From a virus, in the UHGV virus genome UHGV-1353844: a DNA stretch of 64,000 nt. One strand, 5' to 3'. Numbering within the stretch: the first letter of the stretch is position 1; each line of letters starts with the position of its first letter. This document shows, piece after piece, positions 3,104 through 63,969 of the stretch. A program made the translations under genes and the position numbers. The notes below the pieces were generated by a model. That model saw only the letters and a list, made by a program, of their open reading frames with translations. It did not search any database and was not told where the DNA came from.

Positions 3104-3632
3104 ACTCCACCTGGTTGAGCGTTTTCTGCGCAAACACAAACTCTATAACGTTCACGCCATTATCCCTGGTGAAGACTTTACAGATGAGATTAAACCTCTG
3201 TTGATTAAGTACGGGCTAAACGTGATGATTCCCGTTTACTGTACAGAGACAGGCCATGAGTCCGTTGTGGAAATCGAAAAACGTAATCCGGGTTTCGAAC
3301 AACGCGTACTGGATTACCCACGCCACAAGATCGAATTGCTTCGTTATTCTGCGGAGAATCCGAGTAGCGCATCTATTGCTGCATTAGCGGTGTCTTTCCC
3401 GCGTCTGCCAATCCGTTGCTTGCGTTCTACGTCTATCTACGATGCTTATTACGTAGAGCATCAGACGTTCAACGAAAATGTGTTACCACAGTTAACGGAT
3501 GAAGAACGCGACATTGCAAACGTGGTGTGGTCAAACGATCTCTCTGAAACCTTCCAGTTGGTTGATTTTGGCTTGCTGCAAGAATTAGGTATGGTTGGAG
3601 AAGAAGAATGTCTGCTTCTAACAAAAGCTTAA
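3042..3632 (+). CDS. hypothetical protein, radical SAM island partner; likely true start ATG at 3066 with SD gagg
   Basis: ORF with coding codon bias; overlaps neighbours. Confidence 0.6.
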   Translation: MHNLLRQIMKSILIHNFTKRKLHLVERFLRKHKLYNVHAIIPGEDFTDEIKPLLIKYGLNVMIPVYCTETGHESVVEIEKRNPGFEQRVLDYPRHKIELLRYSAENPSSASIAALAVSFPRLPIRCLRSTSIYDAYYVEHQTFNENVLPQLTDEERDIANVVWSNDLSETFQLVDFGLLQELGMVGEEECLLLTKA

Positions 3633-8091: not shown

Positions 8092-8111
8092 TTTCGTTTA
8101 ACTCCTCTTTT

Positions 8112-8152
8112 ACACAAAAAAGAAAAGAGGGTGGGGATTACCCCCACCCTGT
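8112..8152 (-). terminator. rho-independent terminator
   Basis: agggtgggg-atta-ccccaccct hairpin with A-run on plus strand (T-run on minus). Confidence 0.65.
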
Positions 8153-8154
8153 AA

Positions 8155-8634
8155 TTATTTTTTCTTCTTAGCGCGTGATGGCTTAGCTGGCGGTGTTTCA
8201 ACAGCCGGTTTACGTGCAACACGCACCGTAAAACCGCCGACCCAAGTCAGACACTCAGGACGGAAGAAAATACCGTGTTCGATTGCGCTACCGTCCAACG
8301 GTAACTCACCAACCTGTTCTACCCACACGTCGTCTTCTGTAAGGGTTAGGCTGTACTGCTCGTTAATGACGGGCAGTAAGTCAGCGGTAGTCGTTGCAGA
8401 TTCTACCAACAGTTTCGGTAATACGTTCAGGAAATACAAACCTGCGTCAATGCGGTTATACTGGAACGTTTGTTCGTTAGTGTAACCGAGATTCTTAATT
8501 GACGCAACTGTGATTTCGGTATTGTAAGTACCGGTGGTCACAACCGGATCGCCCAGCGTGACTTTGGTGGTGTCGAACTCAGCGTCCGGGTTAGCCTTTT
8601 TAATAAGGTCGAAGATAGTTTCTTGATTGGTCAT
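8155..8634 (-). CDS. paralog-family protein (YNRID motif), basic C-terminal tail
   Basis: 159-aa ORF; shares Y.R[IL]...DLL..IN..Y.L motif with 8648, 16961, 26897. Confidence 0.6.
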   Translation of the reverse strand: MTNQETIFDLIKKANPDAEFDTTKVTLGDPVVTTGTYNTEITVASIKNLGYTNEQTFQYNRIDAGLYFLNVLPKLLVESATTTADLLPVINEQYSLTLTEDDVWVEQVGELPLDGSAIEHGIFFRPECLTWVGGFTVRVARKPAVETPPAKPSRAKKKK

Positions 8635-13117: not shown

Positions 13118-13137
13118 CCTAGGTAATATATATCTGA
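13118..13137 (-). promoter_or_regulatory. candidate phage promoter motif (minus orientation TCAGATATATATTACCTAGG), followed by hairpin 13097-13118
   Basis: conserved motif shared with 16737, 36985, 58107, 53194, 32332. Confidence 0.45.
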
Positions 13138-16736: not shown

Positions 16737-16756
16737 CCTAGGTAATATATATCTGA
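16737..16756 (-). promoter_or_regulatory. candidate phage promoter motif (TCAGATATATATTACCTAGG) downstream of terminator, upstream of hairpin 16712-16734
   Basis: conserved motif. Confidence 0.45.
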
Positions 16757-31980: not shown

Positions 31981-32020
31981 GAAAAATAAAAGTACCCTCT
32001 CTCCATTAGGAGAGAGGGGC
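31981..32020 (-). terminator. rho-independent terminator
   Basis: ccctctctcc-atta-ggagagaggg hairpin, A-run before on plus strand. Confidence 0.65.
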
Positions 32021-32767: not shown

Positions 32768-32808
32768 GTAAAATAAATACACCCTCTCTCCAAACGGAGA
32801 GAGGGGCA
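32768..32808 (-). terminator. rho-independent terminator, stem nearly identical to 31981-32020
   Basis: ccctctctcc-aaac-ggagagaggg. Confidence 0.65.
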
Positions 32809-36984: not shown

Positions 36985-37006
36985 CACTAAGGTAATATCT
37001 ATCTGA
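36985..37006 (-). promoter_or_regulatory. candidate phage promoter motif (TCAGATAGATATTACCTTAG) with hairpin 36966-36984
   Basis: conserved motif. Confidence 0.45.
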
Positions 37007-61030: not shown

Positions 61031-62593
61031 ATGAATAACAAAATGATGTTGATAACCGCATTAGCCACACTATACACTGAAAGTCTGCTGACCGACCCTG
61101 AGAAGGATCACGAGGTCATAAGAAAAGTGCTGTTAGAGGCTAAGCTTCCTGATTACGTAGAGGAAGGTGACGAACGTGCCGCCCTCGTCGAAATCAAGGA
61201 TATCATCACATCCATCATAGACGGCGGTATGCCTTACGACCACACAAACGTCATGAAACGTTTGAAGTTGGCCACTACGCAAATACGTCCTCTATACGAT
61301 ACGATTACCAAATTCCTGGAAGATGATATTCCAGAAGAACCAGAAGCACGCATCGAGCATCTTAACCGTCAAGTAGCACAATACTACTTCCAATTACGTC
61401 AAGCTATTCAAGGCGTACAACTGAAACAAAAATTAGGTCGTACGTTAGGCGCACTGAACGGAACAGAAACGCGCGTTGATTTACAAACGGCGCTCAACGA
61501 CCTCAGAGATAGTCTCTCTACGTTCAGTGAACGCTCTCATAATAAGATTCCCTCACTAGTTGGTGAGCTTATTACGGATAACCGTGCACCGTTCGTACAT
61601 GTGTTCGACTCAATCAGTAAGAAAGCAGCGGGTAACGGTTTACGTACCGGATGGAAAGCCATTAACCAGATGCTGGGTTGTAACAAAGGGATTACCGAAG
61701 AACTTTGGCTGATGCCTGCACTGCCTTTTAACTGTAAATCACTTTTTAGTCTGTTGTTGTCTATCAGTATTCCGGTATTCAATACACCTGAAAAAGTAAT
61801 GGAAAACGTTAAAGGGGATTTGCAGCCGGTTATTCTCGATTTAAGTTTAGAGAACGAACTGGACGTTAACTTGGCGTATGCGTACCAAGCGCTCTACGGT
61901 CATTTTGAAGGTGAAGCGCCGGTTATGGTTGCTTCTGAAAACGCTACCGACGAAGAGAAAGCTTTGCACAACACAAAAATGTCGGACTACCTCTGTAGTA
62001 AAATGCGGGCTAACGGTTGGGAGTACATCTTTCAGAAACACACAAACTCAGATTTTAAAATACACTACTTAAACGACTTAATACTGGACTTAAAGCGTCG
62101 AGGTTATCATGTAGCTGGGATTCGCGGAGACTATTTCGGGACTATCAGTAAAGCAGGTCACGGTAACGGGATTGCCGGTAGCGACATTAAAGAAATTTAT
62201 CGTATCGCTCGAAACATCCAGGTAGTACGTAACCGTGGTTTCTTGTTAGCACCACACCAAATCTCACCAGAAGGCAAAAAATTAAAAGCGTTAGACCCAG
62301 CAAGTTTCTGTAAGAACTTGCCAGGTCGCGGTCTTTACGATAACTGCTCCAGCTTGGATAACGAAGCTGACGGTGAGATGTATTTTAACAAACGTGTTGT
62401 CAATGGGCATAGTTACTTAGAAGTACAACGTGGTAAACACCGTACAATTATCGATACTAAAGAAGCTTACCATTATACAGTAATACCTTTCCGTGAAGTT
62501 GGCATTCTGCCATGGGATTGCGATAAAGAAGAAACAGTAACTGCATCGTCGATAAACGTCTTTACAGGCGGTATGGGTGACGAACTCTTTTGA
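61031..62593 (+). CDS. hypothetical protein (divergent from 60493-61017)
   Basis: 520-aa ORF, SD aagga. Confidence 0.65.
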   Translation: MNNKMMLITALATLYTESLLTDPEKDHEVIRKVLLEAKLPDYVEEGDERAALVEIKDIITSIIDGGMPYDHTNVMKRLKLATTQIRPLYDTITKFLEDDIPEEPEARIEHLNRQVAQYYFQLRQAIQGVQLKQKLGRTLGALNGTETRVDLQTALNDLRDSLSTFSERSHNKIPSLVGELITDNRAPFVHVFDSISKKAAGNGLRTGWKAINQMLGCNKGITEELWLMPALPFNCKSLFSLLLSISIPVFNTPEKVMENVKGDLQPVILDLSLENELDVNLAYAYQALYGHFEGEAPVMVASENATDEEKALHNTKMSDYLCSKMRANGWEYIFQKHTNSDFKIHYLNDLILDLKRRGYHVAGIRGDYFGTISKAGHGNGIAGSDIKEIYRIARNIQVVRNRGFLLAPHQISPEGKKLKALDPASFCKNLPGRGLYDNCSSLDNEADGEMYFNKRVVNGHSYLEVQRGKHRTIIDTKEAYHYTVIPFREVGILPWDCDKEETVTASSINVFTGGMGDELF

Positions 62594-62697
62594 GTCTGGG
62601 GAGCTTCGGCTCCCCCTACGACCCCTTATGCGTCCCGAAAAGCAAAAAAAAACAAGACATCTAATATTTATGAACGAAAGTCAACTACTGAACTAAG

Positions 62698-62726
62698 TAG
62701 GGGGTGGTAGCACACCCCCTTTTATT
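62698..62726 (+). terminator. rho-independent terminator
   Basis: gggggtg-gtagca-caccccc followed by ttttatt. Confidence 0.6.
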
Positions 62727-62728
62727 AG

Positions 62729-62941
62729 TTAGTAGCGTTCACTCCTTTTTTCAGTGATTATCTGTGTGAAACGGTTGGTTGATGGTTTTAATCGTTTATT
62801 CGCACCGAGTTGACTATACTCGTAGATACGTTGCTGTAAATTGGTTTTTGCTGCATATTGTTCTGCAAGCATTTTGTCAGTAAAGTAGTAACCATTGTTC
62901 ATGGTATAAGCCCTCTTTGTAGGGTGATTAAAGAAATCCAT
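62729..62941 (-). CDS. small hypothetical protein
   Basis: 70-aa ORF. Confidence 0.4.
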   Translation of the reverse strand: MDFFNHPTKRAYTMNNGYYFTDKMLAEQYAAKTNLQQRIYEYSQLGANKRLKPSTNRFTQIITEKRSERY

Positions 62942-63023
62942 TACGTTTCCGTAATGGTGCTGTAAAAGGTACGCTGCACCAACAGCGTACCTTGCTTTAA
63001 CTTCTCTTTGGAAAAGTTAAAGC

Positions 63024-63056
63024 GTAAAAAGGGGTGTGACAGCACCCCTTTTTATT
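63024..63056. terminator. bidirectional terminator
   Basis: aaaaaggggtg-tgacag-cacccctttttat. Confidence 0.65.
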
Positions 63057-63060
63057 ACAC

Positions 63061-63246
63061 CTACGACCACCAACTCGGCAGGTTACTGTACGAAGCTTTA
63101 CGCTTCACAGTCCCACAGCTGGGCTGTGGTCCAGGGGCAGTAATCAGACCACGCATGGCGTAGTCGTTCATGTGTGCCTTGAACCTACTTTCCCTAAACT
63201 GTGTTAATTTCGTTTGTTTTAAAACTTCCTTACGTAAATCAGGCAT
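63061..63246 (-). CDS. small hypothetical protein
   Basis: 61-aa ORF with SD gaggt. Confidence 0.4.
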   Translation of the reverse strand: MPDLRKEVLKQTKLTQFRESRFKAHMNDYAMRGLITAPGPQPSCGTVKRKASYSNLPSWWS

Positions 63247-63362
63247 TTTGATACCTCACTTAGTGTCTTAATGTTAGGCTAACAGTTCGTTAGCCGCCTA
63301 AGTAGGGACTGCCTATACAGTCCCTACTGCTTTATCTTCTCTTTCGAAAAGATAAAGCTATG

Positions 63363-63396
63363 ATAAGGGGTGTGTCACCACCCCTTGTTTTTTTAT
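63363..63396. terminator. terminator-like hairpin
   Basis: aaggggtg-tgtcac-caccccttg followed by T7 run. Confidence 0.5.
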
Positions 63397-63554
63397 CAGT
63401 TACTTCTCCTTTCAACTATCAACTGGGTGTTTCTTGGATAAGCAACTTTGGGCTGAGTTAACGTTGGTTGCGCTATTTCACTAACCCTACGTTGAAATTC
63501 GAGCTGTTTTACGGACAACTCGTTTAACCTTTGAAACAACTGTTCATGTTTCAT
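63396..63554 (-). CDS. small ORF of 52 aa not in the ORF track (MKHEQLFQRLNELSVKQLEFQRRVSEIAQPTLTQPKVAYPRNTQLIVERRSN)
   Basis: ATG at 63554 preceded by SD AGGAG; stop abuts terminator hairpin. Confidence 0.3.
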   Translation of the reverse strand: MKHEQLFQRLNELSVKQLEFQRRVSEIAQPTLTQPKVAYPRNTQLIVERRSN

Positions 63555-63581
63555 GAACTTTTCTCCTATGTTGAAGTTGCG

Positions 63582-63636
63582 AAAATAAATAAAGTGTACC
63601 CCTAATCCCGAAAAGGATTAGGGGTTGCTTTTATTT
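63582..63636. terminator. bidirectional terminator
   Basis: cccctaatcc-cgaaaa-ggattagggg with flanking A and T runs. Confidence 0.65.
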
Positions 63637-63969
63637 AATCGCTACGTATTGAACATGACCACATTCCTTACATTGCACGTTGGCTTGCGGGAATGTTAGG
63701 CCGGTTAAAGGAACACGGATTCGATACTGTGCACCACATTCTTCACAAACAAAATCGTGTTCTGGATAAACACGACCTTTCAATTTCTCATCCTTCCTTA
63801 ACGTTTCAGCCAGGAAATGCATGGCTCCTAACGCTTCATTAATCTGCTGTTCCCATTCACCGTCTAACGGATATGCGAACGCTCGAATCAACGTTTCCAC
63901 CATCTCCGGTTTATTGCTCACGTAGACGTGTTTCAATTCAAACTCTACGCGTTGTAGACCGAACAGCAC
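63631..63969 (-). CDS. protein with C-terminal zinc-ribbon (CxxC...CxxC); reading frame stays open to window end so likely 5'-truncated here
   Basis: CEECGAQY...CKECGHVQY; listed start is GTG and no stop upstream to 64000. Confidence 0.5.
   Translation of the reverse strand: MLFGLQRVEFELKHVYVSNKPEMVETLIRAFAYPLDGEWEQQINEALGAMHFLAETLRKDEKLKGRVYPEHDFVCEECGAQYRIRVPLTGLTFPQANVQCKECGHVQYVAIK

Follow-up and report, generated by a model that had tools for sequence, protein, structure and literature searches.

Close to the end of the window (by which we mean the whole 64,000-nucleotide stretch of virus genome UHGV-1353844 analysed here), small genes on the minus strand are separated by two copies of a structured cassette. 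An earlier note on this DNA had recognized in each copy a 30-nucleotide (nt) palindrome and a G+C-rich hairpin, and had proposed operator or attenuator control, or a regulatory RNA structure. What does the cassette do: does it end transcripts, start them, process them, or serve to exchange the genes that it separates? Its anatomy, conservation and restriction to one locus, together with the gene arrangements found around it in related phages, indicate that it most likely marks transcript boundaries.

Each cassette has three parts, here called PAL, T and H (Table 1). PAL, the palindrome, is 30 nt long with arms of 13 nt and a centre of 4 nt. Its pattern, GCTTTANCTTCTCTTTSGAAAAGNTAAAGC, matches exactly twice in the window, and 100 shuffled sequences gave no match even with up to three mismatches. 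T is a G+C hairpin of the form AAGGGGTG-N6-CACCCCTT, the core of which lies 5-6 nt from PAL in both window copies. H is a hairpin of 28 nt that adjoins PAL with no spacer. Read along the minus strand, which is the sense strand of the small genes, each intergenic region runs in the order stop codon, T, 3-8 nt, PAL, H, gene-specific hairpin, ribosome-binding site and start codon, so that each cassette follows one small gene and precedes the next. Alignment of the three units of about 335 nt showed that the T, PAL and H parts are all that they have in common. The palindrome, the hairpin beside it and two of the small genes (B and C) were correctly described in the earlier note, but a third gene (A) and the PAL-abutting H had been omitted. 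The note had also seen that the architecture is duplicated; it had missed that the genes are tandem paralogs, that they are gained, lost and reordered at the cassette, and that a homolog exists in phage SPN3US.

Table 1. Features of the small-gene array and its surroundings, with the positions of the early promoter motif (window coordinates unless a locus of a relative is named).
Feature	Position	Strand	Remarks
gp70-like zinc-ribbon gene	63631-63969	-	cut off by end of window
Hairpin, predicted terminator after gp70-like gene	63598-63625	-	inverted repeat; terminator-like on both strands; kept in all relatives
Left arm and loop of PAL' (CTTTATTTATTTTCGCAA)	63577-63594	-	exact TTTATTTATTTTC at 63581-63593
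Small gene A, 52 aa	63396-63554	-	first of paralog array; open reading frame (ORF) with AGGAGA ribosome-binding site
T hairpin, copy 2	63362-63389 (core 63365-63386)		A-tract, G+C stem, weak sense U-tract, strong antisense U-tract
PAL, copy 2	63329-63358	-	13-bp AU-rich stem, U.G wobble, GAAA loop on sense strand
H hairpin, copy 2	63301-63328	-	11-bp stem, hexaloop TATAGG
Gene-specific 5'-untranslated region (5'-UTR) hairpin before B	63277-63295	-	accompanies gene B in relatives
Small gene B, 61 aa	63061-63246	-	ORF
T hairpin, copy 1	63025-63054 (core 63029-63050)	both	flanks A5 and T5
PAL, copy 1	62994-63023	-	CAAA loop; pair 7:24 is A-U instead of U-A
H hairpin, copy 1	62966-62993	-	hexaloop TTGGTG; second sequence family, same geometry
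Gene-specific 5'-UTR hairpin before C	62938-62957	-	
Small gene C, 57 aa	62729-62902	-	mechanical 70-aa ORF reaches 62941
Terminal T-type hairpin	62699-62720		no PAL; closes array, faces convergent gene
Convergent gene, 520 aa, SPN3US gp73 homolog, divergent DnaB-like ATPase	61031-62593	+	PF20307, E = 4.9e-126; synteny
Inverted loops, H	63312-63317, 62977-62982		relative to L024, L028, L031, L023, L002, L026, L030, L022, L027 (H and T loops together)
Inverted loops, T	63373-63378, 63037-63042		as for H
Early promoter motif, window	13118-13136, 16737-16755; variant 36987-37005	-	matches CAGATATATATTACCTAGG
Early promoter motif, relatives	L002 6035-6062; L032 (SPN3US) 3411-3437; L004 ~8150-8180		

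Folding of the intergenic regions gives z-scores of about -9 to -10 whichever strand is taken. T, PAL and H form three stable, independent and non-overlapping hairpins with no alternative pairing, and there is no leader peptide; with no mutually exclusive structures, classical attenuation finds no support at the locus, and that part of the earlier proposal was rejected. PAL does have a strand preference. It is fully paired on the minus strand only, with one G.U wobble, whereas the plus strand has a C/A mismatch at that place. PAL alone folds at -14.4 and -16.1 kcal/mol as sense RNA versus -11.5 and -11.4 kcal/mol as antisense, a gain of 3-5 kcal/mol. Besides the conserved U.G pair, PAL and H show four further events in which the sense strand has a G.U wobble, and the PAL loop has a fixed orientation that puts SRAA on that strand. 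The conserved wobble, the further G.U pairs, the better sense folding and the fixed loop together argue for a sense-strand bias of PAL.

The G+C hairpins look most like terminators on the plus strand, antisense to the small genes. Nearly all cassettes show an intrinsic-terminator layout (a G+C hairpin, then a U-tract) at T when the plus strand is read; on the sense strand T has it at some junctions only. Over 22 cassettes, the 9 nt that follow T contain on average 4.2 T residues in the sense direction versus 6.8 in antisense; for copy 2 of the window the sense tail, TTATCATAG, has 4/9 T and the antisense tail, TTGTTTTTT, 8/9. Copy 1, with A5 on one side and T5 on the other, would be bidirectional. 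After H in the antisense direction comes, without a spacer, the PAL arm GCTTTAWCT as its tail, and H plus this arm may likewise be taken as an intrinsic terminator on the plus strand; a terminator scan flagged both H and T as terminator-like there. The hairpin that had been called a terminator is real, but its better T-tract is on the plus strand and not on the coding strand.

How widespread is the cassette? Scanning by pattern located PAL in four contigs of IMG/VR and eight from metagenomes or assemblies; nine of all these contigs are 200-229 kb long. It occurs once or twice per genome, at this locus only, in about a dozen relatives of about 225 kb, and no match to the pattern was found in one genome each of 185,579 bacterial and archaeal species. 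The four IMG/VR contigs with both PAL and a gene for a gp73 homolog have gp73 identities of at least 97%, and PAL is absent from relatives with gp73 identities of 84% or less. In the window no further PAL copies were detected by searches for motifs like PAL or like its counterpart in other genera (PAL', below) or by a PAL+H covariance model; elsewhere the model found one extra copy, with a one-base insertion, in an error-prone-looking contig. A search of Rfam at a permissive threshold gave nothing credible, the best match being STnc400 at 24 bits versus a threshold of 80. With the gp73-type 520-aa gene as an anchor, 17 loci were retrieved. A locus search by alignment of the small-protein family did not work, the family being too divergent, and a search with protein C added nothing new.

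Among 23 copies of PAL, most of them ascertained for invariance by a scan pattern that fixed 12/13 stem pairs, variation is confined to stem pair 7:24 and the loop. Copies reached in other ways agree with those retrieved by pattern: the contigs of those in L002, L003 and L022 came up through the gp73 anchor as well (L006-L008), and those in L036 were reached through a small protein (L numbers denote the loci of relatives). In 19 distinct PAL+H rows pair 7:24 is A-U in 10, U-A in five, G.U in two and unpaired in two, the unpaired form being a hybrid PAL whose left and right arms belong to different types (L024, L030). The loops are GAAA, CAAA, CGAA or GAAAA, that is, 4 or 5 nt long. The H stem varies at 14/22 positions while pairing stays at 100%, with two-sided changes in 7/11 pairs, and the loops of H and T are nearly all distinct. 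Polymorphic sites amount to 19% in gene B (five genomes) and 14% in gene C; PAL is more conserved than this adjoining coding DNA, in genomes that are about 86% identical in their flanking genes. The earlier note's reading is borne out in part: this is a conserved structured element tied to gene punctuation, with compensatory stem changes across about a dozen related genomes.

The loops tell a further story. Between close relatives, the H hexaloops of otherwise identical hairpins are found as exact reverse complements: TATAGG/CCTATA, TTGGTG/CACCAA, TTGGCG/CGCCAA, TTGTAG/CTACAA and CGGTAA/TTACCG, five pairs among 17 distinct loops versus 0.03 expected. T loops do the same (CTGTCA/TGACAG and CTGACA/TGTCAG). 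These pairs imply that hairpin loops here have been inverted repeatedly at the DNA level. Template switching in palindromes can produce paired changes and loop inversion in a single event, with no selection on RNA (PMC8794818). An apical segment of 10 nt, TGCGCCAACA, is common to a T-type hairpin (L029 ~1630-1616) and to H hairpins (L002 7437-7446, L026 and L036 1781-1790), which suggests, from the shared letters, that sequence may be exchanged between different hairpins.

What kind of phage carries the cassette? To judge from its sequence, the window belongs to an SPN3US-like jumbo phage, the nearest GenBank record being Erwinia phage pEa_SNUABM_10, a 239-kb Machinavirus. SPN3US has the same synteny: gp70, then gp71 and gp72 (48 aa each), convergent on gp73 ('putative helicase'), beside gp74 and the capsid gene. 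The credible genes here (the gp70-like gene, A, B and C) are all on the minus strand. A, B and C, with X, Y and Z of relatives, form a single divergent family with gp71/gp72 (phrog_18219, function unknown). Gene A, kept in at least seven relatives, matches phrog_18219 weakly and can be aligned with gp71/gp72; gene B has many variants in public data. Searches of Pfam and PHROGs with the small proteins and the gp70-like protein gave only weak or unknown-function matches; the small proteins showed no DNA-binding domain, and the zinc-ribbon matches of the gp70-like protein are below threshold. Gene C likely starts at ATG 62902, since relatives have the 57-aa form and an AAGAGGG ribosome-binding site. 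The long-form start at 62941, which some database entries use (P0003), falls within the 5'-UTR hairpin. Contigs of about 225 kb labelled Escherichia coli, Shigella flexneri and Salmonella enterica encode homologs of the small proteins. Because the homologs sit in contigs so labelled, the clade appears to infect enterobacteria and to turn up in bacterial assemblies. SPN3US is among the jumbo phages that encode both virion and non-virion multisubunit RNA polymerases.

A palindrome homologous to PAL is found at the corresponding junction in other genera. This AT-rich PAL', taken as the ancestral form, reads in full TTATTTTC-N5/6-GAAAATAA and lies after the gp70-like gene and before a gp71/72-family gene in SPN3US, pEa_SNUABM_10, L012 (a 240,761-bp contig) and L013. 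The layout there is a G+C hairpin, a T-rich arm (TTTATTTTC), 5-6 nt, an A-rich arm (GAAAATAAA), a second G+C hairpin and the small gene; L015 has the same layout and L016 a looser form. PAL' and PAL (arms GCTTTAWCTTTTC/GAGAAGWTAAAGC) have the core TTTTC(G)CAAAGA(A/G)AA in common, and their differences are paired, left TT to AC and right AA to GT. PAL' differs in being single-copy, in its loop of 5-6 nt and in having a few spacer bases before the second hairpin, whereas PAL abuts H. The PAL+H covariance model matches these junctions weakly (L015 E = 1.5e-4, pEa10 E = 0.012, others 0.2-0.5). In SPN3US and L015 the first hairpin has a UUCG loop on the sense strand and the second on the antisense strand, and for this reason the second would be a terminator facing the opposite way. 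At the first junction of the window clade the right arm of PAL' and the second hairpin are missing together. We found no description of PAL or of the SPN3US palindrome in the searchable literature.

Around the cassette the small genes form mosaic arrays, with at least eight arrangements of six gene types in about 14 genomes. Writing P for a T-PAL-H cassette, the window, L028 and L031 have A-P-B-P-C; L025 and L026, A-P-B-P-X-C; L036, A-P-B-P-X-(C remnant)-Y; L002, A-P-X-(C remnant)-Y; L001, A-P-Y; L027, A-P-C; L023, Z-P-X-C; L024 and L030, A'-P-X'-P-C; L003, (C remnant)-P-B-P-Y; L022, (X remnant)-P-C-(B remnant)-P-Y; and L034 and L035, A-(C remnant). Since B precedes X-C in some genomes and follows C in others, genes have been moved and not merely lost. 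T goes with the upstream gene and the gene-specific hairpin with the downstream gene, so that the shared part is PAL plus H. Gene remnants adjoin cassettes in several arrays; some breakpoints are elsewhere, in chimeric ORFs and at deletions with AAGG microhomology. Public assemblies contain chimeric or truncated small ORFs (proteins P0008, P0050, P0010, P0011 and P0007; L034 2740-2790), including A with the tail of B, X with a C remnant, altered C-termini, and C cut to seven codons. The existence of such ORFs points to ongoing illegitimate recombination in the array.

How might these features fit together? The account that we prefer, and hold tentatively, is that T and H are opposed intrinsic terminators, that PAL consists of their facing U-tracts kept as a hairpin in sense RNA, and that the repeats are recombination substrates. 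The cassette would then be intercistronic 'punctuation' between tandem gp71/gp72-like early paralogs. T would terminate or attenuate intrinsically in both directions, strongly in antisense but with leakage at some junctions in the sense direction; H, on the opposite strand, would be a second terminator, facing the convergent DnaB-like gene, read-through from which would enter the array antisense. The T-rich left arm of PAL would be the U-tract of the sense terminator and the A-rich right arm, abutting H, that of the antisense terminator; kept complementary, the two would form a 13-bp hairpin in read-through sense RNA and so hide the AU-rich spacer. Finally, the repeated cassette of about 90 nt would provide homology for recombination through which small genes are deleted, duplicated and reordered. 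We read T and H as opposed terminators because of the asymmetry of the T-tracts, the identity of the H tail with the PAL arm, and the orientation of UUCG in SPN3US and L015. The phage's own RNA polymerases would be the enzymes stopped. Beyond the DnaB-like gene, the hairpin at 62597-62620 on the plus strand (GGGGAGC-TTCG-GCTCCCC) has no T-tract on either strand, and the first terminator-like site on that strand is the terminal T hairpin, within the end of the array.

Several observations weigh against this account. A U-tract role leaves unexplained why only 2/26 arm positions of PAL vary as against 14/22 in the H stem, and why PAL is never inverted when the loops of H and T have been inverted repeatedly; the apparent invariance may in part be a product of the scan pattern. 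Two T hairpins (L027, L024) have A.C or C.A mismatches on the sense strand. The loop inversions, which show a DNA-level process at work here, make covariation weaker evidence than usual. Transcript maps of SPN3US were sought in the literature and none was found.

Could PAL instead start transcripts? The probable early promoter of these phages offers a comparison. It is a motif of about 27 nt, TTTCAGATATATATTACCTAGGTGAGAG, which is near-identical across genera with genes only about 75% identical and which lies after terminators and is always followed directly by a hairpin. We came upon it through a stray BLAST match; k-mer enrichment gave mostly codon-driven words. Beyond the window, SPN3US and pEa_SNUABM_10 have the motif, as does a close relative, in which it precedes the array by about 1.2 kb. 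Its sequence and setting make it the probable early promoter (for the virion RNA polymerase) of SPN3US-like phages; in jumbo phages that encode virion and non-virion RNA polymerases, early promoters are marked by an AT-rich motif some 10 nt before the start site (PMC7598289). Because the motif lies upstream, the small-gene array would be in, or downstream of, an early operon. The motif, as CAGATATATATTACCTAGG, is absent at PAL, and PAL shows no similarity to it; the only shared trait is the hairpin directly after. A sigma-70 scan gave as its best result a 9/12 match, in copy 2 only and with the -35 element in the variable T loop; copy 1 has no such site, and promoter-like sites were no commoner than shuffles lead one to expect.

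As the main rival we regard it as possible, if somewhat unlikely, that PAL is a DNA-level promoter of the downstream small gene, with or without an operator for a dimeric regulator, T ending the upstream unit and H serving as a stabilizing 5' hairpin. The position would be right, with terminator, element, adjacent 5' hairpin and ribosome-binding site in the order seen at the clade's early promoters, and both the directionality of PAL and its conservation relative to flanking coding DNA are typical of promoters. Some T hairpins also have good sense U-tracts (TTTTTAC, TTTTCTTA) that would starve the downstream gene without re-initiation. The PeSL elements of T4-type phages are a precedent for terminator-plus-promoter cassettes (PMC2839356), and in a related giant phage 24/67 mapped promoters have no assignable motif (PMC11512511). 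However, PAL is unlike the clade's early promoter and has no convincing sigma-70 hexamers conserved in both copies; as it occurs at a single locus in nine near-complete contigs of 200-229 kb, it would be a private promoter class. Gene C is intact without T-PAL directly upstream in L023 and L026, and gene A is intact with the left half of PAL' only. A promoter alone does not explain the palindromy. An operator, as the earlier note proposed, would account for it and for the sequence invariance: the two-fold symmetry, the symmetric changes at 7 and 24 and the variable centre all fit. A rigid dimer would not easily accommodate an arm spacing that goes from 4 or 5 nt (PAL) to 5-6 nt (PAL'), and the loop of variable length (4, 5 or 6 nt) is more in keeping with a hairpin; the restriction to a single locus also speaks against an operator.

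Less probable is that PAL is a sequence-specific RNA site in a polycistronic early transcript, either cleaved by a double-strand-specific endonuclease (RNase III of the host or an enzyme of the phage) or bound by a phage RNA-binding protein. RNase III processing of T7 early mRNA would be the analogy, and after cleavage T would remain as a protective 3' hairpin and H as a protective 5' hairpin. Such a site would account for the sense bias (G.U wobble, sense folding and SRAA loop) and for the invariance of both arms; the rigid stacking of PAL (13 bp) on H (11-12 bp) with zero nt between them would make a helix of about 24 bp, and the flanking hairpins vary freely while staying paired, as mere protective structures would. 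A stem of 13 bp by itself is short for RNase III, however, and it lacks the internal loop that T7 sites have. Neither an Rfam match was obtained nor a candidate phage protein among the small proteins and the gp70-like protein, with their weak or unknown-function matches. A need for such a site at this locus only is hard to account for, and PAL is missing at some junctions where both neighbouring genes are intact.

A bolder proposal, to which we give little weight, is that PAL is a dedicated site for a phage factor, as DNA for an RNA polymerase or regulator or as RNA for a phage protein, and that T-PAL-H units are autonomous expression-and-exchange cassettes for diversifying small early proteins in jumbo phages of the nucleus-forming type.

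PAL might also be a DNA recombination site, recognized as a cruciform or by a site-specific enzyme, that delimits integron-like cassettes and has no role in expression. Genes between PAL copies are indeed gained, lost and reordered, the hybrid PAL implies a crossover or conversion inside PAL, and the inverted loops demonstrate DNA-level activity of palindromes here. Integron attC core sites read RYYYAAC ... GTTRRRY, and the end of PAL type 2, GTTAAAG, is one base off the latter. In the other PAL type, with GATAAAG, the conserved GTT is lost; the stem forms a regular, unbulged helix and no recombinase gene is present at the locus, and on these grounds PAL was rejected as an attC site. Many breakpoints lie outside PAL, in genes or at AAGG microhomologies, and relatives with one small gene only have a homologous palindrome at the junction. 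As ordinary homologous recombination between repeats suffices for the exchanges, a specialized recombination site seems very unlikely.

The idea that the repeat is a by-product of recent tandem duplication of a gene with its flanks, PAL being functionless, has in its favour that the small genes are paralogs and that PAL-bearing genomes are all close relatives; it is hardly tenable given that the units share almost nothing beyond T, PAL and H, that PAL is more conserved than adjoining coding DNA, and that other genera have retained a related palindrome at the corresponding junction. The plus strand might encode a small RNA composed of H, PAL, T and a U-tract, but it has no evident upstream promoter and its Rfam match is weak.

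Ordinary intergenic regions of the window follow this layout: stop codon, G+C hairpin (often with a UUCG loop), long T-tract, and a promoter plus 5' hairpin where these are present. Convergent junctions have an A-tract, a hairpin and a T-tract. Both layouts count in favour of the punctuation account. At 8092-8154 on the minus strand, the post-terminator T-tract CTCTTTTCTTTT pairs with AAAAGAGGAG, which holds the ribosome-binding site of the next gene; this U-tract/A-tract hairpin could mask translation initiation. The k-mer screen also turned up CCCTCTCTCC and its complement GGAGAGAGGG, which co-occur as hairpin stems at 31995-32018 and 32782-32805, about 790 nt apart.

Very little is known of how SPN3US-like phages punctuate and regulate transcription by their own RNA polymerases, and the cassette is a compact, testable module of about 90 nt with a homolog in the genetically tractable SPN3US. 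The inverting loops beside a PAL that is never inverted are a natural experiment in telling DNA-level mutation of palindromes apart from selection on one strand.

Among known systems, several can be set aside. N4-type hairpin promoters were rejected on the mismatch of their stem and loop sizes with those of PAL, and the REP/BIME interspersed palindromes were rejected on the absence of PAL from the bacterial genomes scanned. A lambda nut site was rejected because the PAL stem has 13 bp, not 5, and because the adjacent terminator precedes the element instead of following it (no search for boxA was made); PAL loops are GAAA, CAAA, CGAA and GAAAA versus a GNRA-like pentaloop. The cassette resembles the RNase III sites among T7 early genes in being a structured element between cistrons of an early polycistronic transcript, with flanks that would end up as protective hairpins; the T7 sites, however, are irregular helices of about 20 bp with an internal loop, whereas PAL is a regular 13-bp stem. 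It resembles bidirectional or back-to-back intrinsic terminators in its G+C hairpins flanked by A- and T-tracts, active-looking on both strands, which lie between units and beside a convergent gene. Unlike these terminators it has three hairpins and not one, and the middle one is AU-rich, invariant in sequence and directional, features that termination does not call for. Conserved sequence motifs are also a feature of terminators in phiKZ and 201phi2-1, related giant phages that encode RNA polymerases, and two motifs can co-occur to form elongated structures (PMC11512511). Those motifs, compared with PAL by description only, occur genome-wide in tens of copies, whereas PAL occupies one locus.

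The functionally closest described system is the PeSL of T4-type phages, which is defined by a strong sigma-70 early promoter and is present in about 50 copies per genome (PMC2839356, PMC4122927). On both counts, promoter and copy number, the cassette is not a PeSL: it lacks a sigma-70 promoter, in a phage clade that encodes its own RNA polymerases, and occurs in one or two copies per genome at one locus; it has in addition the invariant AU-rich palindrome. Each is a short composite intergenic cassette with a G+C stem-loop (PMC2839356, PMC4122927), each flanks small genes of unknown function in a plastic region, and in each case the cassettes are where insertions, deletions and replacements distinguish very close relatives, some breakpoints being elsewhere in the phages studied here. 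The principle that a repeated regulatory cassette drives gene shuffling would extend, on our reading, from T4-type phages to an unrelated lineage of giant phages without host-type promoters.

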